Below are positions 18,846-57,483 of a stretch of DNA of 64,000 nucleotides, in pieces (the first letter of the stretch is position 1; every line of letters starts with the position of its first letter). The stretch comes from an uncultured Gammaproteobacteria bacterium (GTDB taxonomy: Bacteria > Patescibacteriota > Patescibacteriia > Patescibacteriales > WJLG01). Below the pieces are notes generated by a model. That model saw nothing but the letters and a program-made list of their open reading frames with translations, ran no database searches and was not told the DNA's origin. The stretch spans positions 19-64,018 of the forward strand of contig CAYNAR010000001.1 of NCBI GenBank assembly GCA_964395625.1. Direction: 5' to 3'. A program made the position numbers and the translations under genes.

Positions 18846-19703
18846 ATGCCGGAATTACCGGAGGTTGAGACAATAAGACGCGACCTTACGGAAAGAATCG
18901 TCGGTCGCAAGATAAAAACAATAGAGGTCGTTGATAAAAAAATAAGCCAAGATGGAAAATTGGCTTATTTTTTATCCGGAAGAAATATGGTCTCTATTGA
19001 TCGTATCGGTAAGCTTTTGATATTCGATGTCGGAGGCGGAAGTTTTTTATTGATACATCTTCGCATGACCGGTCAGCTTGTCTATGTCGCCGATGGCAAG
19101 ATGACGACCGGAGGGCATTCTTTCGGTGGCAACGAATTCAAAGACGGTTTGCCGGATAAGCATACTAGGTTATGGATGGAGTTTTCCGGTGGTGGAAAAT
19201 TATTTTTCAACGATGCGCGCAGATTCGGATTGGCGAAGGTGGTGACGATGGAGGAGCTCGATGCGATAAAGAAGGAGTATGGCGCGGAACCGCTTCGTGA
19301 ATCTTTCACCTTCGATAATCTTAAGAAGATTTTTTCCAGATTAAGGATTACAGTCAAAGCGGCGTTGTTGGATCAAAAGAAGGTCGCCGGTATAGGTAAT
19401 ATCTATGCCGACGAGGTCCTTTTCGCGGCTGGTGTCCTGCCTTGGCGAGCGGCTTCTTCTTTGAGTGACGAAGAATTGAAATGCATACACAAAGAGTCGG
19501 AGAGAATAATCGCCAAAGCCATAAAATATCGCGGAACCACTTTTTCGGACTATGTCGATGCTGATGGCAAAAATGGTAATTTTACGGCTTTTTTACAAGT
19601 CTATGGCAGAAATGGAGAGAAATGTCCTAAATGTAGCGGTAAAATAAGCAAAAAAAGAGTTGCCGGCAGGGGGACCCATTTTTGTCCGGTTTGCCAAAAG
19701 TAG
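18846..19703 (+). CDS. mutM: Formamidopyrimidine-DNA glycosylase
   Basis: N-terminal MPELPEVE. H2TH region. C-terminal zinc finger CPKCSG...CPVCQ. Confidence 0.9.
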   Translation: MPELPEVETIRRDLTERIVGRKIKTIEVVDKKISQDGKLAYFLSGRNMVSIDRIGKLLIFDVGGGSFLLIHLRMTGQLVYVADGKMTTGGHSFGGNEFKDGLPDKHTRLWMEFSGGGKLFFNDARRFGLAKVVTMEELDAIKKEYGAEPLRESFTFDNLKKIFSRLRITVKAALLDQKKVAGIGNIYADEVLFAAGVLPWRAASSLSDEELKCIHKESERIIAKAIKYRGTTFSDYVDADGKNGNFTAFLQVYGRNGEKCPKCSGKISKKRVAGRGTHFCPVCQK

Positions 19704-19711
19704 GGGAATAT

Positions 19712-19739
19712 TTGACTTTTTAGCCTTTTTTGTTATAAT
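19712..19739 (+). promoter_or_regulatory. Near-consensus sigma70 promoter with extended -10
   Basis: TTGACT (19712-19717), 16-nt spacer, TGtTATAAT (-10 at 19734-19739). Confidence 0.65.
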
Positions 19740-19747
19740 TTATAAAT

Positions 19748-19786
19748 ATCAAAGGTGGTTAGCGTTGCCTCCTTGATGCTTTTTTA
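19748..19786 (+). promoter_or_regulatory. Hairpin plus T-tract between the promoter and rpmG (mutM terminator and/or rpmG leader attenuator)
   Basis: atcaaaggtgg / gcctccttgat imperfect stem followed by T6. It lies downstream of the 19712 promoter and 20 nt upstream of the rpmG ATG. Confidence 0.5.
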
Positions 19787-19806
19787 CTTTTTAAATTTTT
19801 CAATTT

Positions 19807-19962
19807 ATGTCACAGGATTTCATGATTAAGTTGGAATGCACCGAGTGCAAGACCATCAACTATTTTTCTCACAAAAATAAGAAGATCTTGAAGGAGCGTT
19901 TGGAACTTAATAAGTTTTGCAAGGGTTGCAATAAGCACACTTTGCACAAAGAGACTAAATAA
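19807..19962 (+). CDS. rpmG: 50S ribosomal protein L33 (zinc-ribbon form)
   Basis: My own translation: [51 protein letters not shown] (51 aa). It shows the L33 pattern C..C...Y...KN......LEL.K.C..C.KHT.HKE.K. Missing from the ORF track because it is under 60 aa. Confidence 0.85.
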
Positions 19963-19973
19963 TTTTCTTTAAA

Positions 19974-20411
19974 ATGGAACTTGGTGGGAGGCCAATTCAA
20001 AAGAAGATTATCAGAAGAGCCGCCGCTTTGGTTTTTTTACCTATGGCGGTTTTTTTGTTGTCAGGGTGTCAGTTGGGGCCCGTGCCGGAAAGGCTAAAAG
20101 AATTCGATAAGGCCTTGGGTAGGGTGGTCGATGGTGGCGATATTCAACAGAACGATTTATTGAAAATAATAATGGAGAAGAAGGAAGAGTCAAGGGTTGT
20201 CGCAACGACGACGAAGATTGATTTGAACGACGAACAGAAGGCGGCGATAGACGAGTGGTTAGAGGAAAGGGGATTGAATCGCTATGGTGACGACAAGAAG
20301 GCTTTCTATAAAGGCGGTACGCCGTTGTTCGATCCCGATACCGGAAAATCAATCGATCGTTACGATTATATACTGTTTCGTTATCCGAATTTATTAAGCG
20401 AATTAAAATAA
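19974..20411 (+). CDS. Lipoprotein of unknown function
   Basis: 145 aa. Lipobox LLSGC after a hydrophobic segment. Confidence 0.6.
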   Translation: MELGGRPIQKKIIRRAAALVFLPMAVFLLSGCQLGPVPERLKEFDKALGRVVDGGDIQQNDLLKIIMEKKEESRVVATTTKIDLNDEQKAAIDEWLEERGLNRYGDDKKAFYKGGTPLFDPDTGKSIDRYDYILFRYPNLLSELK

Positions 20412-20416
20412 AAAAT

Positions 20417-21463
20417 ATGAACAGAGTATTTTTGACAAGAATTTTTCTTTTTTTGCTTTTGGCGGCGGTCTTATTTGGGTGTTATTTGATTTTTAAGCCT
20501 TTTTTGGTTGTTATAATCGTTTCTACGGTTCTAACATCGGTGTTTTATCCAGCTTATGAGTGGTTAGTTAAGAAAACCGGAGGACGTCGTAATTTGTCTA
20601 GCGCCATAATGTGCGCCTTAATAACATTATGCATTATTATTCCTTTGACCAATCTCATTGCTTATGGTGCGCAAAAATCCATAGAGGCTTATTCTGATGC
20701 TATGAATTTTTTGAATAGTAATGGTGTTGAGGGGACGATTGGGGATGGAGTTTTTTCCAAGATTGGAGGGTGGTTTGATGTTAAGGGACTCGATATTAAG
20801 CCTATTCTTCTTGATGTCGCTCAAAAGTCCAGTAATTGGTTGGTTGGTGGCGCCACTAGTTTGGTCAAGGGGACCACTTCTTTTGTTGTTTCTTTGGTCT
20901 TGATAATCTTTAGTTTGTTTTTTCTTTTTGTCGACGGTCGAAAGATGTTGGAGAAATTAATGTATTGGACTCCACTTCCCGATAAGTATGATCATCGTAT
21001 ATTCAAAAAATTCAAAGATGTCAGTTATAGTTTGTTTGTATCTACTTTTGCCGTAGCCGCCTCTCAGGCTGCCACTTGCGCTCTTGGGTTTTACATCGTT
21101 GGATTGCCGGCTTTTTTCCCGGCCATTGCTACCGCGTTAACTTCTATAATTCCCTATGTCGGATCTTTTGTTGTTTGGTTGCCGGCAGCGATATATCTTT
21201 TTGCCACTGGACAAATTTGGCAAGGTATTTTTATGATTGTTTGGGGTTTGGTGGTTATTAGTAATATTGATAATGTGCTTCGTATGTTGATGATAAAAGA
21301 TAAAGCCCAGGCACATCCTTTGCTTATCCTTTTTTCGGTTTTAGGAGGTATTGTGGTTTTTGGTTTTTGGGGTGTCATAATCGGTCCCATGATAATAGCT
21401 TTAACAGTTACAGTGCTGGATATTTACGACGAGATAGAGTATAAGAAAATTTTGTGTAAGTAA
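20417..21463 (+). CDS. AI-2E family transporter (PerM/UPF0118)
   Basis: 348 aa, about 8 TM helices. Family-typical C-terminal core IPYVGSFVVWLPAAIYL...ISNIDNVLRMLM. Confidence 0.75.
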   Translation: MNRVFLTRIFLFLLLAAVLFGCYLIFKPFLVVIIVSTVLTSVFYPAYEWLVKKTGGRRNLSSAIMCALITLCIIIPLTNLIAYGAQKSIEAYSDAMNFLNSNGVEGTIGDGVFSKIGGWFDVKGLDIKPILLDVAQKSSNWLVGGATSLVKGTTSFVVSLVLIIFSLFFLFVDGRKMLEKLMYWTPLPDKYDHRIFKKFKDVSYSLFVSTFAVAASQAATCALGFYIVGLPAFFPAIATALTSIIPYVGSFVVWLPAAIYLFATGQIWQGIFMIVWGLVVISNIDNVLRMLMIKDKAQAHPLLILFSVLGGIVVFGFWGVIIGPMIIALTVTVLDIYDEIEYKKILCK

Positions 21464-21480
21464 GCCAATAAAGTAAGGAC

Positions 21481-21509
21481 TTGAAAAAAAGGAATGGTTT
21501 TGATATCAT
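21481..21509 (+). promoter_or_regulatory. Sigma70 promoter for tRNA-Trp
   Basis: TTGAAA (21481-21486), 17-nt spacer, TATCAT (21504-21509), 10 nt before the tRNA 5' end. Confidence 0.6.
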
Positions 21510-21519
21510 TTCTTTTGTT

Positions 21520-21593
21520 GCGGGCTTAGTATAATGGTAGTACAGAGGTCTCCAAAACCTTTAGCGTGGGTTCGATTCCTACAGCCCGTGCCA
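21520..21593 (+). tRNA. trnW: tRNA-Trp (anticodon CCA), CCA end encoded
   Basis: Hand-folded 74-nt cloverleaf. Acceptor GCGGGCT/AGCCCGT (G1-U72). D stem GTAT/GTAC. Anticodon stem GAGGT/ACCTT with loop CTCCAAA. T stem GTGGG/CCTAC with loop TTCGATT. Discriminator G, then CCA. Confidence 0.9.
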
Positions 21594-21601
21594 ATAAAAT
21601 T

Positions 21602-21634
21602 AAAAGACGGAGCTTTAAAAAGCTTCGTCTTTTA
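21602..21634. terminator. Bidirectional terminator hairpin after tRNA-Trp
   Basis: agacggagct / agcttcgtct stem (one G-U pair), flanked by an A-run and a T-run. Confidence 0.75.
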
Positions 21635-21640
21635 ATTTTA

Positions 21641-22010
21641 TATGGTTAGAGTAGGAATCGAACAGGTTGGAAACGAGGTTAGGTCTGCGAGGGAACGAGC
21701 AGGCCGACACCGAGTGCTCGACGAACATTCGGGGAATGTTCGTCGCCAACCCTGGACAAGTGAACGAGGAGCTATTCGGCGACGAGTGAGCGCGACAATC
21801 GTATGTAAGTCTTCGCTGTCTCTGGACAAGAGAGTGAGGCGGAAGCCGAACGAACGCGATGTTTCCATGAAACTTTTGGACAAGTGAACGAGGAGCTATT
21901 CGGCGACGAGTGAGCGCGATAATCATATACGAGTGGCAGGTCTTCGCTGCCTCTCCCGCAAGAGAGTGAGGCGGAAGCCGAACGAACGTGATATTCTTAC
22001 AGCCCATATA
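21641..22010 (+). ncRNA. GC-rich structured non-coding module of unknown class (candidate sRNA or integrative-element remnant)
   Basis: Marked local G+C and purine enrichment compared with all other spacers. Perfect 12-bp hairpin at 21719-21745. Stem ggtctgc/gcaggcc (21682-21705) has a U-G pair valid only on the + strand. Enclosing stem caggttgg/ccaaccctg. ORFs are open on both strands only because of the composition. Strand and class are uncertain. Confidence 0.45.
21753..21992 (+). repeat. Tandem duplication of a 124-nt unit
   Basis: Copy 1 is 21753-21876 and copy 2 is 21877 to about 21992. The first 42 nt are identical (tggacaagtgaacgaggagctattcggcgacgagtgagcgcga). A divergent middle follows. 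Both copies share tcttcgctg...aagagagtgaggcggaagccgaacgaacg. Confidence 0.9.
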
Positions 22011-22046: not shown

Positions 22047-22075
22047 TTGACTTTTTTCCATTTTTCTGTTATACT
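22047..22075 (+). promoter_or_regulatory. Sigma70 promoter for the 22147-23612 operon
   Basis: TTGACT (22047-22052), 17-nt spacer, TATACT (22070-22075). Confidence 0.65.
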
Positions 22076-22146
22076 GTAAATTAGTAAACAAGGGTTTTGT
22101 TTACCCTTTCATCAAAAAATCAAAAACCGTAAGGATAGGAGGATTG

Positions 22147-22761
22147 ATGAAGAAAGTTCTTTTCATTTTTTTCTCGGTGTTAGTCATCGGAATCATTCCG
22201 GCCCTTGCGGCTGAAGTGATATCCGGAAAGGTAAAGGATTCTGTGACGAACGAACCTCTTCCTGAGGTTAAGGTAGTCATCTCTGCTTGCACGACTTTCA
22301 CGGATAGTGACGGTAGTTTTTCACTGCTGTTGCCGTCGGTGTCGGTTATGGAGCGAAGTCGATATGAGACCGTGAGGTTGAATGTCGATGGTTTTCAAAA
22401 AGGCGCATTTGATATTATAAATATCGATGGCCGGAAAGTAAGTTCTTTCGAAGGACTATCTTCCGGTGTTCATATATTCGTTGTCGATGGGGTAGCCTCT
22501 AAAACTATTGGCGGAGGAAGTTTTCGCCAGGCAAAGGAGGCCCTTATCGATAAGGGGTGTGAGAAAGCCTTGAAGAAGACAGCAATGTTGGCCCTGGCTT
22601 ATTTTGAGAAGCCAGGATATGAGATTCTGGAAAGACCTCTTTCCAGTGGTGTTAATGAGGTGCGATTGATGAAATCAACCTCGGATGTCAAAATTAATAT
22701 CGATGTCGATACTCTCGGCGTCACTCAAATCAATATTGAAATCAAAGGAGATATCAAATGA
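22147..22761 (+). CDS. Secreted protein with a carboxypeptidase-regulatory-like beta-sandwich and a second beta-sandwich module
   Basis: AGGAGG 5 nt upstream of the ATG at 22147. Signal peptide. ISGKVKDSVTNEPLPEVKVVI....TDSDGSFSL is a CarboxypepD_reg-like pattern. Confidence 0.6.
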   Translation: MKKVLFIFFSVLVIGIIPALAAEVISGKVKDSVTNEPLPEVKVVISACTTFTDSDGSFSLLLPSVSVMERSRYETVRLNVDGFQKGAFDIINIDGRKVSSFEGLSSGVHIFVVDGVASKTIGGGSFRQAKEALIDKGCEKALKKTAMLALAYFEKPGYEILERPLSSGVNEVRLMKSTSDVKINIDVDTLGVTQINIEIKGDIK

Positions 22762-23612
22762 AAACGATTCTTAATATTCTTGTTGCAATCGTAGCATTGC
22801 TTGCGTATGGTTGTTCTTCGGTAAGCCCTGTCTCCAGTTCGTTTGGTGATGGGAGTTCAGTTGTTAATCTTAATGTTACTGTTAAGTCGCTTGGCGTTCT
22901 TGGTAAAGTAGCTGCCAGTAACTACCCAGACGCCCCGTCCAAAATTCTGTTCTCTACCAGTCCAATGCGGCCTGGTCATGTGACAGACACTCTTTATCTT
23001 ACCGGAGCAGGGCCATCGTATTCTTGTTCTCTTCTCGGCTTTGAGAGAAATAAAGATTATGTCATTACGGCAATGGCTGTTAGCGCTGATTATGGTCAGA
23101 TGGGTACGTCCAAAATCTTAGGGATAGAATACAACATTGGTTCAGTTAGTGTTTCGATTGGTAATAGTGCTGAAGTCAGTGCTAATCTTGCTATGGGGGC
23201 TATCGCTCACAAGGTAAGAGTAAATATCCCAATCAAGGGAACGCCATCGGGTTTGTCGGCTTGTAAAGTCAAGCTGATTCTTAGTTCTAGTGATCTTGCC
23301 AGTGGTGCGCCCTATCGTGATACCGTAGAGACGGCGTTCGCTGTAAATACCGTCGATACGGTTAAGTTGGATAGGATTATTCCGCTCAATTCGCTAAGAA
23401 CGAGCACCCCGACTAGTTATAATGCCGAAATCATTATTGATAATGGTGACGGTACTTACTATAAGGGGAATAGCAATATTGCACTTTCTCCCTCTGTCGG
23501 ATCTTCGGCAACAATCACTCTTGTAAAAGTTGGTGATACCTCTTCATTGATGAAGATGACGATTACCATGACTCCTATAGGTGAAGCTGTATTAACGGCT
23601 TCATACTCTTGA
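22758..23612 (+). CDS. Lipoprotein of unknown function, translationally coupled to 22147-22761
   Basis: ATGA start/stop overlap with the upstream gene. Lipobox LLAYGC. 284 aa, Ser/Thr/Val-rich and beta-rich in composition. Confidence 0.6.
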   Translation: MKTILNILVAIVALLAYGCSSVSPVSSSFGDGSSVVNLNVTVKSLGVLGKVAASNYPDAPSKILFSTSPMRPGHVTDTLYLTGAGPSYSCSLLGFERNKDYVITAMAVSADYGQMGTSKILGIEYNIGSVSVSIGNSAEVSANLAMGAIAHKVRVNIPIKGTPSGLSACKVKLILSSSDLASGAPYRDTVETAFAVNTVDTVKLDRIIPLNSLRTSTPTSYNAEIIIDNGDGTYYKGNSNIALSPSVGSSATITLVKVGDTSSLMKMTITMTPIGEAVLTASYS

Positions 23613-23621
23613 ACATTAAAT

Positions 23622-23652
23622 AGACCGTGGTTTAACAACCATGGTCTTTTTA
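23622..23652 (+). terminator. Rho-independent terminator
   Basis: agaccgtggtt / aaccatggtct stem (one G-U pair) followed by T5. Confidence 0.8.
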
Positions 23653-23659
23653 ATTATAA

Positions 23660-23695
23660 AAAAGCCCTCTTATTTTTTAAATAAGAGGGTGTGTT
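23660..23695 (-). terminator. Rho-independent terminator for the convergent minus-strand gene
   Basis: ccctcttat / ataagaggg stem, with a T-run on the minus strand. Confidence 0.7.
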
Positions 23696-23696
23696 T

Positions 23697-24659
23697 TTAT
23701 TCGTCGTATCTTTTATGTTCGGGTACACCGTCGAGCGGTATCTCGTCTATTCCTGGTCGGTAAATGTGCCCCGCAACGATATCTTTGCTCGCCACTTCAA
23801 CTACTCCGTCACTTATGATGTTCATAAGATTGGGATAGAAGGATATTATTACTTTTCCGGTGTCGCAAACAAAGGTTATCTCTGAAGCGTATTTTCCGTT
23901 AAGGTCTCTCGAGAAATAGTTGCACATCATCATGTCGTTGCGGTATAAGGCAGGTATCGCGAAAGAGTCTATGCACGATTCATAGGTTTTGCCATTCGTC
24001 CACTTGCCGATCGATTTCGGTATTTGCAGTGTTACAAAAAAACGCATTCTTTGTGATTCGCGGAATAGAGCGTGCAGTGTATCCGAGTTTTTGGTCGATA
24101 AGTCGACCGTATCCAAAGCCGAGAAAGATCTGTCGGACAGATTGTAGTCGTCCCATGGGCATTTTTTCAAATACCACAGACTTATTAAGATCTCATATTT
24201 TTTACCAGATGGAATTTTGACTACCTTTGTCGTGCATATGCCATTTACGATGTTGAAGGAAAAATTCAACGTGTCGCTTTCTCCGGTGAGCGATATCGCC
24301 TGCAAGGTCATGGCGTTTACAGAGCTTAATCTGAAATTGCAAAGAGATGTCCTATTGATGGCGGTTTTTGCCAGTGTGGCGATTGTGGGTTTTAGCAGTA
24401 TGCTATCGGTGGTTTTGATGAAGAAGTATACACTCGCCAAAGAAGAGGTGTCTCCGATTCCGGCAACGGTGCTAGGCGGTATCGTGTCGCTATAGAAGTT
24501 TTTAAGCGAATCTCCTCCTAGACGGTCAGTTAAGGTTTTGTCGATTATCGTGTCCTGTGGGACATTGATGTATTCATCGTAGTCTTCTACCGTAGTTGGA
24601 TTTCTGTCGCAACTCGACATTACAACAATGACTATAAGCAAAACGATTTTTTTAAACAT
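23697..24659 (-). CDS. Lipoprotein of unknown function, paralogue of 12115-13320
   Basis: TAGGAG RBS. Lipobox VMSSC. Shared core PSGKKYEILISLWYLKKCPWDD and LDTVDL compared with PVGYKYEIVTYLRYAVTCPWDT and RDTVDF. Own TTGACA-17-TTAAAT promoter upstream. Confidence 0.7.
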   Translation of the reverse strand: MFKKIVLLIVIVVMSSCDRNPTTVEDYDEYINVPQDTIIDKTLTDRLGGDSLKNFYSDTIPPSTVAGIGDTSSLASVYFFIKTTDSILLKPTIATLAKTAINRTSLCNFRLSSVNAMTLQAISLTGESDTLNFSFNIVNGICTTKVVKIPSGKKYEILISLWYLKKCPWDDYNLSDRSFSALDTVDLSTKNSDTLHALFRESQRMRFFVTLQIPKSIGKWTNGKTYESCIDSFAIPALYRNDMMMCNYFSRDLNGKYASEITFVCDTGKVIISFYPNLMNIISDGVVEVASKDIVAGHIYRPGIDEIPLDGVPEHKRYDE

Positions 24660-24744
24660 AAATACTCCTATTGCGGATGGTTGTTTTTAAAAGAGCTGAA
24701 TGATATTTAATCATTATTTATGTTATTTGTCAATTTATTTGTTT

Positions 24745-24789
24745 CGTAAAATAAAATCCCCCTATTTTCGTTAAATGAAAACAGGGGGG
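24745..24789 (-). terminator. Rho-independent terminator of the 24805-25284 gene
   Basis: Plus-strand ccccctattttc / gaaaacaggggg long stem (one mismatch), followed by a U-rich tract on the minus strand. Confidence 0.7.
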
Positions 24790-24804
24790 TTGTTTGTTTT
24801 GCCC

Positions 24805-25284
24805 TTAGGCGATTCTTGGATTGGCGACCGCACTACGCCGAAGTTTCCTCCGAAAAAGATTTAATAGCCATAATTTGGTCAATGTCAGTTTCAGGGAAAT
24901 TCCACGACAAGTGTTGTCTTTGAAATTCTTGTGCAAAAGTTCTGCCGATGGAAAGATATCCTTCACTCCTTTGTCCACGTCTTGCCATTTGAAACGCTGG
25001 CAAGAATGGACGAGTATAACGAATCCTCCAACGACATTTCCAGCCTTTGTCTCTGGCCAGCTGTCAGTGCTCATGATCGACGTCATCAGCGGTTGATTGA
25101 CGCTGAAGGCGTTGAATCCGGCGATCTCCGACGGGAGCTCATCTATGGTCATCTTGCCTAGAGCTCTCATTCCTATAGCCTCTCTTACTGAGTCAGTCAT
25201 TTTTGCGAGATTTTCCTTAGTTAAAGACTGATATGAAAGTCTGTAGGTTAAGACTGCCACAAGCGATGGGAAGATTTTTTCCAT
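24805..25284 (-). CDS. Cytoplasmic protein of unknown function
   Basis: 159 aa. AAGGAG RBS 8 nt upstream of the ATG. No signal peptide or TM helix. No motif I recognise. Confidence 0.6.
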   Translation of the reverse strand: MEKIFPSLVAVLTYRLSYQSLTKENLAKMTDSVREAIGMRALGKMTIDELPSEIAGFNAFSVNQPLMTSIMSTDSWPETKAGNVVGGFVILVHSCQRFKWQDVDKGVKDIFPSAELLHKNFKDNTCRGISLKLTLTKLWLLNLFRRKLRRSAVANPRIA

Positions 25285-25511
25285 CTTCTATTTTCTCCTT
25301 TTTTAAAAAGAACAATTATTATTTTAAAAACTATTTTCCAAAAATAAAAAACCAGCCAAAGCGACTTGGCTAGATTACTCCCTCCTTCATCCCACTATCT
25401 CACAAAAATTTCGTCCGCCTGATAAGGTGCGAACAACGGAAATTTTCATCTCTCACTTAGTGAAATTGTTTTTGCTGTTGTCAGCGAAACTCTCTCATAA
25501 AAATTGATTAC
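25285..25511 (-). promoter_or_regulatory. Long 5' leader with an intrinsic terminator and a 6-codon mini-ORF (candidate attenuator or riboregulator)
   Basis: Minus-strand transcript from the 25518-25546 promoter. Purine-rich repeats UGAGAGA, UGAGAGA and UGAGAUA. Helix AAAAUUUC/GAAAUUUU. Mini-ORF AUG AAG GAG GGA GUA AUC UAG (25390-25370), whose stop codon overlaps terminator stem AGCCAA/UUGGCU (about 25355-25371), which is followed by GGUUUUUUAUUUUU. Confidence 0.5.
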
Positions 25512-25517
25512 AAGGTT

Positions 25518-25546
25518 ATGATAAAATATTTTTTAAAATTTGTAAA
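25518..25546 (-). promoter_or_regulatory. Sigma70 promoter (minus strand)
   Basis: On the minus strand: TTTACA (plus 25541-25546), 17-nt spacer, TATCAT (plus 25518-25523). Confidence 0.55.
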
Positions 25547-25574
25547 GACTTTTTTCTTTTTTTCGACATTGAAA

Positions 25575-25604
25575 TAAAAAACAGGGTTTTGAGCCCTGTT
25601 TTTC
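25575..25604. terminator. Terminator after the PspC-domain gene
   Basis: acaggg / ccctgt stem flanked by an A-run and a T-run, immediately after the stop codon at 25608. Confidence 0.7.
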
Positions 25605-25607
25605 TTA

Positions 25608-26645
25608 TCAATCCTTGATGCTTCGCTCGATATTTTCAGCTAAGTCTTTGAACCAGAGAAAGAAGTCGTGGGAGACCGGTATGAAATGCCATATTAAGTA
25701 GCCGGACAATATCAGCCAGCCAAGAGAGGCTAAGCCTCCCAGACAACCGCCATTTCCGCATTTAGGGGTGGACAGAGCGCTGATTATGATTACGAAGACA
25801 AAAGCCCAGCCGATAATCACCGCCCAGATCGGCCAGGCGATCGGCAGTATCATGCCGAATATTGCCCCGCTTGTGATTATCGAGACGAGTCCGAAAATCC
25901 AAAGGACTATGAAGGCGACTATCAATAGACCGTATGGACTGGAGGAATTTTTCCAGTTACCGCAACAACCGCCCCATTTCATTTTTTCCATCTTTTCGCT
26001 CCATTCCAGCTTTTGAAGTCTGATTCGGTCTTTAATTTCTTTTTTTTTCCTCTTCCAATCGTTTTTATCGGAGAATTCGGACATCTTCTCCTTTGCGCGG
26101 TTGATGAATTCTTGAGCCGTCTTGGGTTCTCCGTGGGCAGCGGCCATCTGTTCTGAGGTGGTCGCTATCGGAACGATCACTAATAGCACGATATAGGCGA
26201 TAATACCGGCGCCTTGGGTCAGTAATGTCAAAAGTATAAAGACGACTCTGACTACTACGACGTCTATGTTGAAATAGGCGGCTAGGCCGGTGCAGACTCC
26301 CGCTATCATCTTTCCCTCATAGATGCGATAGAGTCTCTTGACCGGTTTTTTATCCTCACCGTCCTTTTTGTTTTCATTTTTTTGCTCCTCCGGGCTTTCT
26401 ACTGGTCCCATTTCTTTAATGATCTTCTCGACTTCTTCGTCGGTGGCTACATTTTTGCCGGCGTTCAATAAACGGTTGATTTTTTCGGCTATCGCTTGCT
26501 CGAGGTCGTTGATTATCTCGGTTTTGTCCGGGTCGGAAGCTAGGCGCTCGGCCGCTTTCTCCAAATAGTCCTTTAATAAGTTGTATCCGTTCTCTTCCAA
26601 TTGATAGGCTCGTCCGCCTAAATTGATGGAAATGATTTTGTTCAT
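25608..26645 (-). CDS. PspC domain-containing membrane protein
   Basis: 345 aa. PspC domain LYRIYEGKMIAGVCTGLAAYFNIDVVVVRVVFILL. Extra C-terminal TM bundle. Confidence 0.8.
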   Translation of the reverse strand: MNKIISINLGGRAYQLEENGYNLLKDYLEKAAERLASDPDKTEIINDLEQAIAEKINRLLNAGKNVATDEEVEKIIKEMGPVESPEEQKNENKKDGEDKKPVKRLYRIYEGKMIAGVCTGLAAYFNIDVVVVRVVFILLTLLTQGAGIIAYIVLLVIVPIATTSEQMAAAHGEPKTAQEFINRAKEKMSEFSDKNDWKRKKKEIKDRIRLQKLEWSEKMEKMKWGGCCGNWKNSSSPYGLLIVAFIVLWIFGLVSIITSGAIFGMILPIAWPIWAVIIGWAFVFVIIISALSTPKCGNGGCLGGLASLGWLILSGYLIWHFIPVSHDFFLWFKDLAENIERSIKD

Positions 26646-26673
26646 ATTTTGAGTTTATGATTATCTGATAGCG

Positions 26674-26994
26674 TTAAAAGTTTTTTATGGTCTTGTCCAG
26701 CTCTTCCCAGTAATCCAAAAGGTCTTGCAATCGTTTTTTTCCGCTGGCGGTGAGGGAATAATATTTGCGCGGTGGTCCGGACTCCGACTCTACCCATTCG
26801 TACGACAAGAGCTGCTCTCGTTTGAAGCGAGAGAGTAGTGGGTAGAGCGTCCCGTCTTGCGTGGAGAATTCCGTCGTCTTTAATTTTTCCAAGATGTCGG
26901 CCGCATAGACTTTATCGTTCTTGATTATTTTTAAGACGATCAATTCCAATAATCCTTTGCGGATTGGGCCGAATTTGTCTTCGTTGTTTTCCAT
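26674..26994 (-). CDS. PadR family transcriptional regulator
   Basis: 106 aa. Winged-helix motifs LELIVLKII...YAADI and GTLYPLLSRFKREQLL...PPRKYYSLT. Confidence 0.85.
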   Translation of the reverse strand: MENNEDKFGPIRKGLLELIVLKIIKNDKVYAADILEKLKTTEFSTQDGTLYPLLSRFKREQLLSYEWVESESGPPRKYYSLTASGKKRLQDLLDYWEELDKTIKNF

Positions 26995-27000
26995 ATTTAG

Positions 27001-27020
27001 TACCTTTATATAAAAAGGTA
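27001..27020. promoter_or_regulatory. Perfect palindrome overlapping the padR RBS and -10 region (candidate PadR operator)
   Basis: taccttt-atataa-aaaggta (7-bp arms), 7 nt upstream of the padR ATG. On the minus strand, TTGACT lies 17 nt upstream of TACCTT. Confidence 0.45.
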
Positions 27021-27116
27021 GCAGGCATTAAAAAATAAGTCAAGTTTTTTATTTGCACCGTATTTCGTTTTGTGTCATAATTGATTTATAAGATTCAAAA
27101 AATAAAAATACAAGTT

Positions 27117-27266
27117 ATGGCTAAAAAGAAAAAAACCTTAAAAAAACTTTCCAAGAGGGGGTATAGCGCCAGTGGTGTTTTTACCTTCGCTTTGTTGACC
27201 TTGTTTGTCGTATCCTCAGCTGTCGTCTTTTGCTTTTTTGTGATTCCGAACTTACCGACCATTTAA
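27117..27266 (+). CDS. Small membrane protein (Lys-rich N-terminus, one TM helix)
   Basis: 49 aa from the ATG at 27117 (MAKKKKTLKKLSKRG... then a hydrophobic helix). No family recognised. Confidence 0.3.
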   Translation: MAKKKKTLKKLSKRGYSASGVFTFALLTLFVVSSAVVFCFFVIPNLPTI

Positions 27267-27381
27267 GATAAAAAAAGAAAACACTCGTTAATCGTTATGC
27301 ATGCTTTGCCGTCGGTGGGGGATGTTTTCTTTACTTTTTAGCAAATATTGTCTATTATTCTACTATTAAGCAAATAAATAT

Positions 27382-28632
27382 ATGAAACAATCATTTCTAT
27401 TCACCAAAACAAGAAAAGAGGATCCAAAAGATGAAGTCAGTCGCAATGCGCAATTGTTGATCAGGGCCGGTTTTGTTAATAAAGAATTAGCCGGCGCGTA
27501 TGCTTATTTGCCCTTGGGTTTACGTGTTTTTAATAAGATAGCCAATATCATTCGCGAGGAGATGGACGCTGCCGGAGGACAGGAGGTTACGATGACGGCC
27601 TTGCAGGAAAAAGAGACTTGGGAGAAGACTAATCGTTGGAGCGATGAAGTTGTTGATAATTGGTTCAAGACAAAGCTGAAGAGCGGTGTGGAGCTCGGGC
27701 TCGGTTTTACTCATGAAGAGGCTTTCGCTCGCTTAATGAAGAATCATATCAATTCCTATAAGGATTTGCCGGTCTATGTCTATCAGATTCAGACCAAATT
27801 CCGCAATGAGACGCGCGCTAAATCCGGATTGATGCGCGGTCGCGAGTTTTCTATGAAGGATCTTTATTCCTTCTCCAGAAGCAAGGAGGAGCACGAGACT
27901 TTCTATGAAAAGATGAAGGACGTCTATATGAAAGTGTTTACTCGTCTCGGCATGGGCGACAGGACTTATATCACCATATCTTCCGGCGGATCATTTTCCA
28001 AGTATTCCTATGAATTCCAGACATTGTCCGAGGCCGGCGAGGATGTGGTCTATATCGTCGATGAGGAGAAGAAGATCGCTATCAATAAAGACGATTTCAA
28101 CGACGACGTTATCAAAGATTTCAACTTGACGACTTTGGATAAAGAGAAATTGGTCGGACATAAGTCCATCGAGGTCGGAGACATCTACACCTTGGGTTAT
28201 AAATATTCCGAGGCTTTTGATTTGAATTTCCGTGACCAAGAAGGCAAGGAAGAACCGGTATTTATGGGTTCTTACGGCATGAGTCCGTCTCGCTTGATGG
28301 GAGCCGTAGTGGAATTGAATAACGACGAGAAGGGAATCGTCTGGCCGGAGGCTGTTTCTCCTTTCGCCATCCACTTGATCAGTTTGGGTCAAAATGAAGA
28401 GGCGGAAAAAGTCTATAACGAATTATTGAAGAATAAGATAGAAGTGCTGTACGACGATCGCGAGGCCAGCGCCGGAGAGAAATTCGCCAACGCCGATTTG
28501 ATCGGCATCGGTCGTCGCCTTATCGTTAGTGGCAAATCTTTGGCCGCCGGCGGATACGAATTGGGCTGGAGGAAGAACAAAGAGACAAAAATAGTTACTT
28601 TGGAACAATTAATAACAGAATTAGATAAATAG
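27382..28632 (+). CDS. proS: Proline--tRNA ligase, short bacterial-type form lacking the INS editing domain
   Basis: YAYLPLGLRVFNKI, FTHEEAF, and motif 2 YQIQTKFRNETRAKSGLMRGREFSMKDLYSF. C-terminal anticodon-binding domain. Only 416 aa. Confidence 0.85.
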   Translation: MKQSFLFTKTRKEDPKDEVSRNAQLLIRAGFVNKELAGAYAYLPLGLRVFNKIANIIREEMDAAGGQEVTMTALQEKETWEKTNRWSDEVVDNWFKTKLKSGVELGLGFTHEEAFARLMKNHINSYKDLPVYVYQIQTKFRNETRAKSGLMRGREFSMKDLYSFSRSKEEHETFYEKMKDVYMKVFTRLGMGDRTYITISSGGSFSKYSYEFQTLSEAGEDVVYIVDEEKKIAINKDDFNDDVIKDFNLTTLDKEKLVGHKSIEVGDIYTLGYKYSEAFDLNFRDQEGKEEPVFMGSYGMSPSRLMGAVVELNNDEKGIVWPEAVSPFAIHLISLGQNEEAEKVYNELLKNKIEVLYDDREASAGEKFANADLIGIGRRLIVSGKSLAAGGYELGWRKNKETKIVTLEQLITELDK

Positions 28633-28672
28633 ATTTTAATTGGTTCTTTAACATTACGATGGAGGCTTTAAA

Positions 28673-29125
28673 ATGGAAGGATGGTTTAGTTTTGTTTCTA
28701 ACAAGAAAAGACTTTGGGTTTTTTTAATCGTCGGGGCGATAGCTTCGATTTTGGAAGTTGTTTTGCATGTCGTGATTTCCGAAGGGGTTAGGGAAAGCTA
28801 TAAAAGTGTTTTTTCTAACGTTTCTTATGTTTTAATGTTGCTTATTGTTATTGTCGGCAGGGGATTCTTTTATGGCTTTTTAGCACTTTTTTCCAGGGCA
28901 AATATGGAAAAAGCCATCAAAAATGGAAAATTAAAAATTAAAAAGACGAATGAAAATTTTTTTGTCGCTTGGATTGTTTTTATTTTCTGTCTTTTTTTGG
29001 GTGTTTTAACCTTGCCATTGGGGAGTGTTATAATAAGAACTTTTTTATTTACCGTCGCCATCTTTTTCGTTTTAGAAGTCGCCGGTTTTGCGGAAAAGTT
29101 TTTTAAGATTGATTCAGGGAATTGA
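28673..29125 (+). CDS. Membrane protein of unknown function (4 TM helices)
   Basis: 150-aa hydrophobic ORF. GGAGG RBS. Confidence 0.5.
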   Translation: MEGWFSFVSNKKRLWVFLIVGAIASILEVVLHVVISEGVRESYKSVFSNVSYVLMLLIVIVGRGFFYGFLALFSRANMEKAIKNGKLKIKKTNENFFVAWIVFIFCLFLGVLTLPLGSVIIRTFLFTVAIFFVLEVAGFAEKFFKIDSGN

Positions 29126-29222
29126 GAGTAGGGATTGTCGCGCGCTTGCCATTTTGGCCGGCGCGTTTTTATTTTTGTTATTATTGTGTTATTATTACTA
29201 TATAATTATTAACCGCAAAAAA

Positions 29223-30269
29223 ATGGAAGACTTAAGAAAATTGAATATCAACTGGCCGAAGGCTATCAAGATTTTTGGCATAGTTCTTTTGGCTCTAGTG
29301 GTTTTGTCCATTGCCGTTAACTTGGTGGTTAAGCCTATCATGTCTCAGGTTCGCATGGGCTCGTCCTTTGGTAATTCCTCTTCCGTGATGAAATACCAGT
29401 CGGCATCTCCTATGAATGCCCCTATGGCAAGCTACGATTACGCCAAGGAAGAGGGAGTTAGTCTGTCTTTTCGCAATACTGCCGGCAGCGTCGGATATTC
29501 GGATTCGATGTCTACTCCCCAGACTTCTAATGGTGCTTATGAGGTCATGAACTACAATGCCACGATCGAGACCGGAAAATTGGAGAAGGATTGTTCCAGT
29601 ATTTCCGAATTAAAAGGATTGGATTATGTGGTGTTCAATAATTCCAATATCGGCAAGAAGAATTGTAATTTCAGTTTTAAAGTCGAGAGAGAAAAAGTCG
29701 ACGAGGTCTTGGGCATGATCAAGGGTTTGAAGCCTCGTGATATGTCGCAGAACGTCGAGACTATCAAGAAGCAGATAGAGGACTTCACTAGTCGCGAAGA
29801 GATATTGAAGAGTAAACAGGCTTCGATCGACGACACCTTGAAGAACGCCATCGCCTCTTACGACGAGATAAGCAAGTTGGCCACCAAGACCAGCGACGCC
29901 GAGAGTTTGACTAAGGTTATCGATAGTAAGATAAGCATTTTGGAAAGATTGACTTCGGAGCGTTTGCAGGTCAGCAATGAATTGGAAAGTCTCGGCAGGG
30001 CTAAAGCCGAACAGTTGGATCGTTTGAAGTACGTCGATTTCTACGTCTATATCTATGAGAATAAAGTCATCGATGGTCAAGAGTTCAAAGATTATTGGGT
30101 AGCTTCTTTCAAGAGTTTCGTTCTCGATATAAATCAATTGCTTAAAGACTTGAGTCTCGGCTTGGTCGCTTTCGTGATGGTGGTGGTCAAGTATTTGGTC
30201 TATATATTCTTACTATTCGTCGTCGGTAAATTCTGTTGGGAGGCGGGTAAGAAGATTTGGAAAAAATAA
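29223..30269 (+). CDS. DUF4349-like membrane protein (N-terminal TM, coiled-coil ectodomain, C-terminal TM)
   Basis: The ATG at 29223 (MEDLRKLN) is preferred over the upstream non-ATG start. The architecture and central heptad-rich region resemble DUF4349. This is a weak call. Confidence 0.5.
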   Translation: MEDLRKLNINWPKAIKIFGIVLLALVVLSIAVNLVVKPIMSQVRMGSSFGNSSSVMKYQSASPMNAPMASYDYAKEEGVSLSFRNTAGSVGYSDSMSTPQTSNGAYEVMNYNATIETGKLEKDCSSISELKGLDYVVFNNSNIGKKNCNFSFKVEREKVDEVLGMIKGLKPRDMSQNVETIKKQIEDFTSREEILKSKQASIDDTLKNAIASYDEISKLATKTSDAESLTKVIDSKISILERLTSERLQVSNELESLGRAKAEQLDRLKYVDFYVYIYENKVIDGQEFKDYWVASFKSFVLDINQLLKDLSLGLVAFVMVVVKYLVYIFLLFVVGKFCWEAGKKIWKK

Positions 30270-57255: not shown

Positions 57256-57283
57256 TTGACATTTTTAGTATTTATGATATTAT
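57256..57283 (+). promoter_or_regulatory. Sigma70 promoter for the rplJL operon
   Basis: TTGACA (57256-57261), 16-nt spacer, TGaTATTAT (-10 at 57278-57283). Confidence 0.7.
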
Positions 57284-57291
57284 ATGGATAA

Positions 57292-57408
57292 ATCAAGCCA
57301 TAGACAGTAGGCGACGAGGTAAAACCTCCAATAAGACCTGCCGAGGCAAAAAAGAACGACTTTCGTTTTTATTTGTAATCTGTGGTTTTAGGGCCAGAGA
57401 TTTTTTTT
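57292..57408 (+). promoter_or_regulatory. Ribosomal protein L10 leader (autoregulatory rplJ 5' UTR) with terminator-like hairpins
   Basis: GACAGUAGG...GAGGU-AAA-ACCUC...CCUGCCGAGG resembles the conserved L10-leader core (GUAGG/CCUGC helix followed by CGAGG). It is followed by aacga/tcgtt plus a T-run and tctgtgg/ccagaga plus T8. Confidence 0.6.
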
Positions 57409-57483
57409 ATGCATTATAAATTGCGAATGATGTCTATGTGTTTTGATTCGTAGCTTATAATTCATAATTCATAATTTAATATT

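Follow-up and report, generated by a model that had tools for sequence, protein, structure and literature searches.

A small folded module with tRNA-derived borders in Patescibacteria, a possible tRNA-targeting insertion element

A GC-rich module lies behind the tRNA-Trp gene and its terminator in a 64,000-nucleotide stretch of contig CAYNAR010000001.1 (the window, taken at its full length), and it appears to belong to an undescribed family of small, protein-less and strongly folded modules that stand beside tRNA genes in a clade of Patescibacteria. Two copies of sequence from the adjacent tRNA, one inverted and one direct, bracket the module, homologous modules follow two different tRNAs, the hairpins of its conserved unit covary, and the module is present in some relatives and missing in others. 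The reading that we favour, with a probability of about 0.45, is that of a non-autonomous element inserted site-specifically at the T-loop/3' end of tRNA genes, which carries a structured non-coding unit. The initial annotation, which was made from the letters of the window, had offered two readings of this region, a decayed or miniature integrative element or an undescribed structured small RNA (sRNA). Each of them finds partial support, and the two probably describe one thing from different sides: the mobile-element and the folded-RNA readings are compatible, and the element may carry, or be, a folded RNA.

Layout of the module and its borders

The tRNA-Trp (CCA) gene, with an encoded CCA end, occupies 21520..21593 of the + strand (called by ARAGORN; 64.5 bits with the Rfam tRNA model) and is preceded by a consensus promoter-like site, TTGAAA-17-TATCAT, at 21481-21509 (+). 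It is followed by a long, bidirectional intrinsic-terminator hairpin at 21594..21641 (inverted repeat I1, with 23-nt arms that are 96% complementary), at whose foot the encoded CCAAU pairs with AUAUGG. Homologous terminator hairpins, in which the GC cores are compensated, are found in the related loci L003, L004, L009 and L012. The module extends over 21642-22010, and the promoter-like site of the downstream gene (22047..22075, +) serves as its outer limit and is given for context. The spacer had been described as conspicuously rich in G+C and purines, which it is: GC is 0.53 and purines make up 59% of the + strand, versus 0.41 and 50% in the flanks, and a + strand purine skew of 59-63% is seen across all six modules. 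The right half of the module is identical in independent Logan assemblies from other samples, so the module is not an assembly artefact.

The T-arm and 3' end of tRNA-Trp, which include the T-loop, the 3' T-stem and the start of the 3' acceptor strand (21570..21587, +), are the sequence copied at both module borders. The left border, at 21651..21663 (+), is a perfect inverted copy of tRNA positions 53-65 (GTAGGAATCGAAC), here called the inverted repeat (IR), and matches the T-arm at 21570-21582 in 13/13 positions. The right border, at 21993..22005 (+), is a direct copy of the tRNA 3' part (ATTCTTACAGCCC, 12/13), and forms a direct repeat (DR) with a first copy at 21575-21587 (+) within the tRNA 3' part; the two are designated DR2 and DR1. 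Both tRNA-derived 13-mers had been pointed out in the initial annotation and both exceed chance. For the direct 13-mer, two matches at no more than one mismatch are observed, against a mean of 0.05 in shuffled sequences, none of which (0/100) reached two. DR2 also pairs with the IR over 8 bp, with one G.U pair, and so closes the module.

Related modules after two different tRNAs

Relatives were taken as contigs that encode homologues of the upstream AI-2E transporter, the best of which are found in Patescibacteria metagenome-assembled genomes. Where this transporter is at least 70% identical, tRNA-Trp is followed by a homologous terminator, an inverted T-arm copy and a homologous GC-rich module, which measures about 185 nt in L004, about 170 nt in L006 and at least 118 nt in L009, where the contig ends. 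L003 has a truncated module of about 90 nt, L008 a remnant of about 30 nt, and L012 the terminator and the IR, followed by unrelated DNA to the contig end; this makes five to six relatives with a homologous module behind tRNA-Trp. In the relatives with at most 67% AI-2E identity (L010/L011, L015, L016 and L017), tRNA-Trp has a different terminator and the module was not found, and the same holds for L005, at 70% identity. Within the AT-rich hairpin after tRNA-Trp of L005 (4740-4830), however short, a GC-rich segment (CCGACGAACAGGGTGATGGGACGGAAGCGACCC) may be a relic of the module family. The IR is present in 7/7 module-bearing loci and in 0/6 module-less relatives.

A motif scan of metagenome contigs gave one locus, L022, in which the module family follows tRNA-Glu. 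Behind the terminator of this tRNA stands GGGGAGTCGAAC, the exact complement of the local T-arm, followed by a three-unit module of ~400 nt. Next come a degenerate version of the tRNA-Glu 3' end (CTCCCAGGGACCAAC) and, 10 nt further on, a partial inverted copy (AGTCGAAC), behind which lies a second module of ~170 nt; at the far end of the latter, ACTCCCCTAGGGACTAC repeats 17 nt of the tRNA-Glu 3' end exactly. The internal junction of this tandem pair, with its degenerate DR, 10 nt and partial IR, is what two successive insertions would leave. The window and L022 are 81.9% identical over 138 nt (E = 1e-15), and L009 and L022 are 88% identical over 101 nt. No more tRNA-Glu loci were obtained through the TsaD neighbour of L022, where synteny was not conserved and no tRNA was found.

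The borders follow the local tRNA. Three different T-arm sequences (Trp-CCTAC, Trp-CCCTC and Glu) are each reproduced by the IR of their own locus, with 13/13 matches in the window, 13/13 in L006, which has a different T-stem (CCCTC), and 12/12 in L022 (tRNA-Glu), and in all loci the IR terminates at ...TCGAAC, the complement of tRNA position 53. L009 is an exception, in which the IR (GGGGATCGAAC) differs from the local T-arm (GTTCGATTCCTAC), as expected if the IR moves with the element. The DR matches the local tRNA in 18/18 positions in L006, 17/17 in L022 and 12/13 in the window, all with tRNAs called intact, and where the right end is available it spans from T-loop position 57-58 through the acceptor 3' strand to the discriminator. 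Its acceptor part varies by locus (AGCCC, ATCCC, TAGGGAC), tracking the local tRNA, without a partner inside the module. Stem closure alone needs no tRNA identity, so copying or recombination of tRNA sequence at the DNA level is required at least twice. Judged by these loci, the tRNA-derived brackets are a trait of the family at two different tRNAs.

A local, non-mobile rearrangement would give another origin for such borders: they would stem from replication errors, by fold-back or template switching, at the T-loop's palindromic TCGA core, and the hairpins would be functionless expanding repeats. The end of the IR at ...TCGAAC and the start of the DR at 57-58 do bracket the TCGA core, the near-perfect complementarity of the 12-bp P3 hairpins (95/96 cells paired, 2 G.U, see below) is as for DNA-templated palindromes, and tandem duplication is evidently active in the window. 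This explanation is nevertheless very improbable in our view, because it accounts neither for the 82-88% unit identity between the tRNA-Trp and tRNA-Glu loci nor for the conserved loop and junction sequences with covarying stems.

The Logan contig L001, which comes from another sample, agrees with window 19599-21591 (1993 nt) at 99.95% identity and is unrelated from there on. Beyond its tRNA it has an AT-rich terminator, neither IR nor module, and a different next gene (MKKTLIFSLS...). The sole mismatch is at tRNA position 66, where the A of the window pairs with U7 and the C of L001 is mispaired, and the encoded CCA is missing in L001. The mismatch inside the tRNA places the breakpoint in the tRNA 3' part, as expected if that part travels with the downstream insert. 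The comparison at the tRNA sets L001 1922-2135 against window 21520-21733. The tRNA-Trp gene behaves as a strain-level recombination hot spot, and L001 may hold another inserted element.

Another explanation is that the module is the deletion remnant of a larger integrated element, a prophage or genomic island at tRNA-Trp, of which the ends next to the attachment (att) sites survive, the units being leftovers of an origin or of packaging sequences. The layout of the DR is typical of T-loop integration, a variable island with different genes lies downstream of tRNA-Trp in the window, L001, L003, L004 and L006, and in L012 the IR is followed by unrelated DNA. We hold this origin to be quite unlikely, since seven loci have only small modules (about 90-600 nt) and never a gene between IR and DR, the same units are found, again gene-free, at a different tRNA, and no third copy of the tRNA end was found elsewhere in the 64-kb window. 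The compensatory evolution across relatives of ~70% protein identity would, in addition, imply selection on the module after any deletion.

The conserved folded unit

The window contains one intact unit, D1, followed by two decayed tandem units. D1 (21658..21768, +) matches the covariance model of the unit with 125.7 bits. Its 5' domain, for which the initial annotation had proposed a closing stem around two hairpins, is present, and its minimum free energy has a z-score of -3.4. In P1, AGGTTGG (21664-21670) pairs with CCAACCCT (21746-21753) and encloses the two hairpins. The tip hairpin of the P2 arm, GGTCTGC/GCAGGCC (21682-21705), has one U.G pair and the loop GAGGGAACGA, and P3 is a perfect 12-bp hairpin (21719-21745) with the loop GGG; the conserved CUGGACAAG stands behind it.

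Two alignments were used, A3 with five units, from which the covariance model was built, and A4 with eight P3 hairpins. The A3 alignment and RNAalifold agree on the P1/P2/P3 architecture, and 18/30 predicted pairs are compensated. P1 (AGGUUGG/CCAACC) has three compensatory pairs (UUGG/CCAA, UCAG/CUGA, UUGC/GCAA), the P2 loop GAGGGAACGA is conserved, and CCCUGGACAAG after P3 is invariant among the A3 units. In the eight P3 hairpins, 95/96 cells are paired (99%), only two of them as G.U, and 8 of the 12 pairs are changed on both sides; no shuffle (0/500) reaches this level, and slid controls are 26-54% paired. Compensatory changes thus support a conserved fold in P1, P2 and P3, which bears out the covariation that a structured RNA should leave. 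The model also finds units on which it was not trained, in L006 (63 bits) and L022 (45 and 44 bits), and has no other match in the 64-kb window or in ~100 kb of the relatives' DNA away from tRNAs.

In L006, which has a single complete module, IR and DR form a 9-bp closing stem, and the fold z-score is -3.4 on the + strand; the minus strand folds equally well (-4.0). The + strand is favoured by the purine skew of all modules and the constant co-orientation with the tRNA, and also by the ratio of G.U pairs to A.C mismatches, about 5 to 1, which is a small excess. RNA and single-stranded DNA are indistinguishable here, and a near-perfect P3 with two G.U pairs fits either.

The chief rival of an insertion element is a structured 3' trailer RNA that resides in the transcription unit of the tRNA and is produced by terminator read-through from the strong tRNA promoter. 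It would be closed by the IR-DR pairing and processed with the help of its tRNA-like 3' end, by analogy with RtT/RttR of E. coli, and its function might be protein binding, to judge from the GGA/GGAA present in all conserved loops. Strong covariation, together with conserved loops and junctions, speaks for such a trailer, as do the purine skew, the orientation, which is always that of the tRNA, the G.U pairs that exist only on the + strand (in P2 and the closing stem of the window, and two in P3), and the motif-related GC-rich hairpins in the transcribed tRNA 5' leaders of L003, L005, L006 and L022. In E. coli, moreover, the 178-nt repeats distal to tyrV have an overlap of 19 nt with the tRNA 3' end, and the sRNA RttR is annotated in them. 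On the other hand, a long intrinsic terminator separates tRNA and module in every locus, and no sigma-70-like promoter was found on either strand from the tRNA terminator to the promoter of the next gene (window, L006 and L022). The same two facts weaken a free-standing sRNA gene. RNA function alone also leaves unexplained why the IR and the unpaired acceptor part of the DR match the local Trp or Glu tRNA, the module is missing in the 99.95%-identical strain and truncated or decayed in close relatives, the D2 units of the window are without one hairpin arm, the minus strand has equally good folding energy, and no Rfam family, RtT included, is matched. A trailer RNA is therefore possible but, on our estimate, unlikely.

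A CsrA sponge, which the GGA in every conserved loop had suggested, gained no support: no CsrA gene occurs in the fetched DNA and GGA is not enriched beyond composition.

The tandem duplication and the decayed units

The 124-nt tandem duplication of the initial annotation is present at 21753-21876 and 21877-~21992, with the first 43 nt identical in both copies. The TGGACAAG motif occurs three times (21753, 21823 and 21877), and the 3' block AGAGAGTGAGGCGGAAGCCGAACGAACG is common to both copies (21829-21856 and 21961-21988). Shuffled sequence has no such tandem-copy matches. Tandem Repeats Finder reported no 124-nt array, there being fewer than two clean copies, with indels. The two small hairpins differ in their loops, TCTCT-GGACA-AGAGA at 21819-21833 and CTCT-CCCGCA-AGAG at 21951-21966.

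The two copies are decayed units, D2a (21753..21876, +) and D2b (21877..21992, +). D2a keeps only GTCTTC of the 3' arm of the long hairpin (21809-21818), together with the small hairpin at 21819-21833, a GGC-GGAA-GCC hairpin at 21838-21847 and the right-end motif GAACGAACGCGAT at 21848-21860. D2b keeps GCAGGTCTTC, the 3' arm of an L006-type hairpin (21937-21949), the hairpin at 21951-21966, GGC-GGAA-GCC at 21970-21979 and, at 21980-21992, the right terminus GAACGAACGTGAT, which is conserved. The intact long hairpin is seen in L006 (GAAGACCTGC-TGGGG-GCAGGTCTTC) and in unit 2 of L022, and in the window copies an AT-rich filler stands where its 5' arm was. The duplicated units retain the 3' block of CUCU-GGACA-AGAG, GAGUGA, GGC-GGAA-GCC and right-terminal CGAACGAACGYGAT. 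L004, L006 and L022 have this block as well, conserved apart from small differences that are compensated (CCCU/AGGG; GGCGGAAUUCCGCC; UCCGCCCAGGGCGGA). The covariance model of the unit recognizes neither D2a nor D2b.

None of the relatives examined has the 124-nt duplication, which on this comparison is specific to the lineage of the window, and the identity of the first 43 nt makes it recent. The 124-nt unit had been taken as the repeating unit of the module. Compared with its homologues, it is not the functional unit. The functional core is the conserved ~110-nt unit of the D1 type, of which the 124-nt unit reads as a decayed copy, minus the 5' arm of the long hairpin.

Searches for known families, genes and enzymes

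Rfam searches (cmscan, both strands) returned only the tRNA, with no other match at E <= 10 in the window or at E <= 1 in four relatives, so the module is not reclassified into a known family; the negatives include RtT, group I introns, ribozymes, transfer-messenger RNA (tmRNA) and Y RNA. ARAGORN found no tmRNA in the window. A minus-strand or intron-containing tRNA or tmRNA was also rejected: the minus strand reads GTTCGATTCCTAC-TCTAACCA, but has no acceptor partner or 5' half, and both ARAGORN and Rfam are empty. The tRNA group I introns published for Patescibacteria lie at position 35/36 and are unrelated to the module (PMC13011429).

Coding potential on either strand (+81 aa or -130 aa open reading frames, ORFs) was rejected as well, as there is no Pfam match and there are no homologues, and substitutions follow hairpins rather than codons. 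The public assembly lists the 130-aa minus-strand ORF (window 21615-22007) as a hypothetical protein (cluster P0121). The ORF has no Pfam family, and a protein search returns only itself. Compared with the frame of L022, the substitutions that compensate hairpins are non-conservative (ATNIPRMFVEHS vs AVSIPRMLTDRS), and homologues of the region are separated by indels that are not multiples of 3. The annotation is almost certainly spurious. A HMMER scan of 1.84 billion representatives gave one further short ORF, which is a copy of D1 (P0242), and otherwise unrelated repeats. Between IR and DR no ORF with a coding signal was found.

Phage and plasmid BLAST searches returned no similar sequence, and scans of viral contigs with four motifs gave only chance matches inside phage ORFs, which were discarded. 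GC-rich hairpins that fit simple patterns at L022 3637-3679 and in L026 were also set aside, as they look like ordinary terminators or an unrelated leader.

Proposed mechanism and its difficulties

We infer an element composed, from left to right, of the tRNA 3' part, the long terminator hairpin, the IR, one to four units of ~110 nt, the right terminus CGARYGAMYGYGA and the DR. Each ~110-nt unit would consist of P1, enclosing the P2 arm and the perfect 12-bp P3, then CUGGACAAG, GAGYGA and a small GGAA-type hairpin. Entry would occur by site-specific recombination in the T-loop region, as for T-loop-targeting integrative elements, and insertion would regenerate an intact tRNA with its own terminator, the original 3' part being displaced to the far side, where it would become the DR. 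The number of units would then change by local tandem duplication and decay. The element encodes nothing and so would have to be moved in trans. With a single intact unit beside two decayed ones of recent duplication, the copy of the window is probably immobile now; any remaining activity would be that of single-stranded DNA or of a + strand transcript, made by read-through and folded. The decay, truncation and change of copy number seen in L003, L005, L008 and the D2 units of the window fit a dispensable, selfish element.

The integrative proposal of the initial annotation is supported by the borders, which match at both tRNA-Trp and tRNA-Glu copies, by the tandem pair of L022 and by the module-less L001. 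Pfam shows no integrase, transposase or other recombinase among the neighbours of any copy. This absence is the first of several points that weigh against an insertion element. No autonomous relative was found in searches of viral, phage and plasmid collections. A plain recombination between phage and bacterial attachment sites (attP x attB) leaves the IR unexplained, and the re-matching of IR and tRNA 3' end at tRNA-Glu needs either separate lineages for each tRNA or a templating step. All Trp-linked copies belong to one clade, with an AI-2E neighbour of at least 70% identity, for which vertical inheritance gives the same picture. L001 has another downstream gene as well and so does not amount to a clean empty site of the module by itself. 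Covarying stems combined with conserved loops and junctions are a hallmark of functional RNA rather than of att arms, and only about 8 loci underlie the comparison.

A bolder variant of the insertion element gives the IR the role of a guide. The ~110-nt unit might then be a catalytic or recombinase-recruiting nucleic acid, which would pair across the T-loop (positions 53-65) of tRNA genes or tRNAs. We give this variant a slim chance. If true, it would make the module a protein-less, nucleic-acid-guided mobile element whose guide is rewritten for each tRNA (Trp CCTAC, Trp CCCTC and Glu), that is, a new nucleic-acid-guided insertion system.

Neighbouring features and side observations

The variable island of the window (22144-30269, compared with L003, L006 and L008) starts at the module. 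The genes from tRNA-Trp to the conserved ABC-F/GreA or PspC genes are different in each relative, and are mostly secreted or lipoprotein-like proteins without a family. Further downstream, a ribosomal protein L10 leader (Rfam RF00557, 53 bits) at 57280-57416, upstream of rplJ, is an ordinary feature. A large island spanning tRNA-Trp to this leader was rejected, as the intervening genes are ordinary chromosomal genes.

GC-rich hairpin leaders of 40-90 nt stand behind the promoter and ahead of the tRNA 5' end in L006 (1130-1201), L005 (4600-4667), L003 (6240-6280) and L022 (690-752), and use the motif vocabulary of the module. The leader of L006 ends in GATGGACAAG right before the tRNA, that of L022 has CTCCGCCCCTGGCGGAGCGAAG, that of L003 has a CCTGC...GCAGG hairpin, and those of L005 and L006 have in common GGATTTRAGCGGGCCTTGC, a sequence similar to the tRNA 5' end. 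The tRNA-Trp of the window has no such hairpin leader.

Small stand-alone GIY-YIG ORFs of L003 (5997-6236, adjoining tRNA-Trp) and L026 (5538-5825, adjoining an aminoacyl-tRNA synthetase gene), of 79 and 95 aa, may be homing-endonuclease remnants. In two Patescibacteria contigs, L025 (1254-2119) and L026 (3001-4149), the TsaD call is split into two ORFs in a row (about 215 aa and 86-133 aa), for which a frameshift, an assembly error or an intervening sequence could be responsible. The intergenic region L026 4200-4330, upstream of a gene for a class I aminoacyl-tRNA synthetase, has CCCGCCCGAGGCGGA and GAACGTCGCGAACGTGA, similar to motifs of the module; the region is not recognized by the unit model.

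Comparison with known systems

Patescibacteria have tiny genomes and, to our knowledge, few recognized mobile elements and almost no described non-coding RNAs. The module would be either the smallest tRNA-targeting integrative element described or a new class of tRNA-linked structured RNA, and on either reading tRNA-Trp emerges as a hot spot of recombination in this lineage. The module further accounts for a spurious hypothetical protein of the public annotation, and the covariance model of its unit can be used to survey genomes of the candidate phyla radiation (CPR).

The guide of group I introns and the bridge RNA of IS110 resemble the module in having a segment at the 5' edge of a folded, conserved domain, here the IR, that is complementary to both sides of the apparent insertion point (tRNA 53-56 and 57-65). 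Unlike group I introns, the module matches no intron or ribozyme (group I or II), its units are too small, and there is no U.G pair at the junction. Unlike IS110, it comes with no DEDD recombinase gene, and the likeness to both systems is one of logic, without homology.

The distal repeats of the E. coli tyrT-tyrV operon are transcribed with the tRNA and freed by processing. These 178-nt repeats, with RttR, are like the module non-coding, adjacent to and downstream of a tRNA, variable in copy number and provided with a copy of the tRNA 3' end. The module differs from RttR/RtT in that it matches neither in sequence nor in structure, with no Rfam RtT match, stands behind a strong terminator that interrupts contiguity with the tRNA transcript, and has an inverted T-arm copy; of the units in the window, the last alone has a tRNA copy at its end.

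Pneumococcal BOX elements (boxA-boxBn-boxC) and repetitive extragenic palindromes (REP) with their bacterial interspersed mosaic elements (BIME) share with the module the absence of proteins, the abundance of hairpins, the intergenic and dispensable nature, a variable number of units, and mutually complementary ends (8-9 bp between IR and DR). They occur in many copies, spread over many intergenic sites, whereas the module has one copy in 64 kb and always stands beside a tRNA, from which its ends derive. Miniature inverted-repeat transposable elements (MITEs) are no better match: the complementary IR and DR are not accompanied by duplicated flanks, so that a MITE-type target-site duplication is missing, and there are no dispersed copies.

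The module is also close to T-loop integrative elements, the phages and islands with a tyrosine integrase of which mycobacteriophage Ms6 is an example, and to their non-autonomous, att-flanked derivatives such as cis-mobilizable elements (CIMEs). The attP/attB core of Ms6 comprises 26 bases that overlap tRNA-Ala at its 3' end, including the 7 bases of the T-loop, and editing of this core retargets integration to other tRNA-Ala genes (PMC1762012). The module resembles these elements in its apparent insertion at a tRNA gene, by which an intact tRNA would be restored, in its T-loop-to-3'-end direct repeat (13-18 nt, against the 26-base core of Ms6) which flanks the insert while the proximal tRNA is intact, in tandem accretion (L022) and in a strain difference that starts inside the tRNA 3' part. 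A CIME should have, besides repeats like attL and attR and no recombination module, both of which are observed here, an autonomous partner that acts in trans; none was found in the viral, phage or plasmid collections. The module differs from both in having no integrase of its own beside the att site or nearby, in its total size of about 170-600 nt, and in an additional inverted T-arm copy on the tRNA-proximal side. Its interior, furthermore, is made of covarying hairpin units instead of genes, and is the same at two tRNAs, with borders that match each of them.

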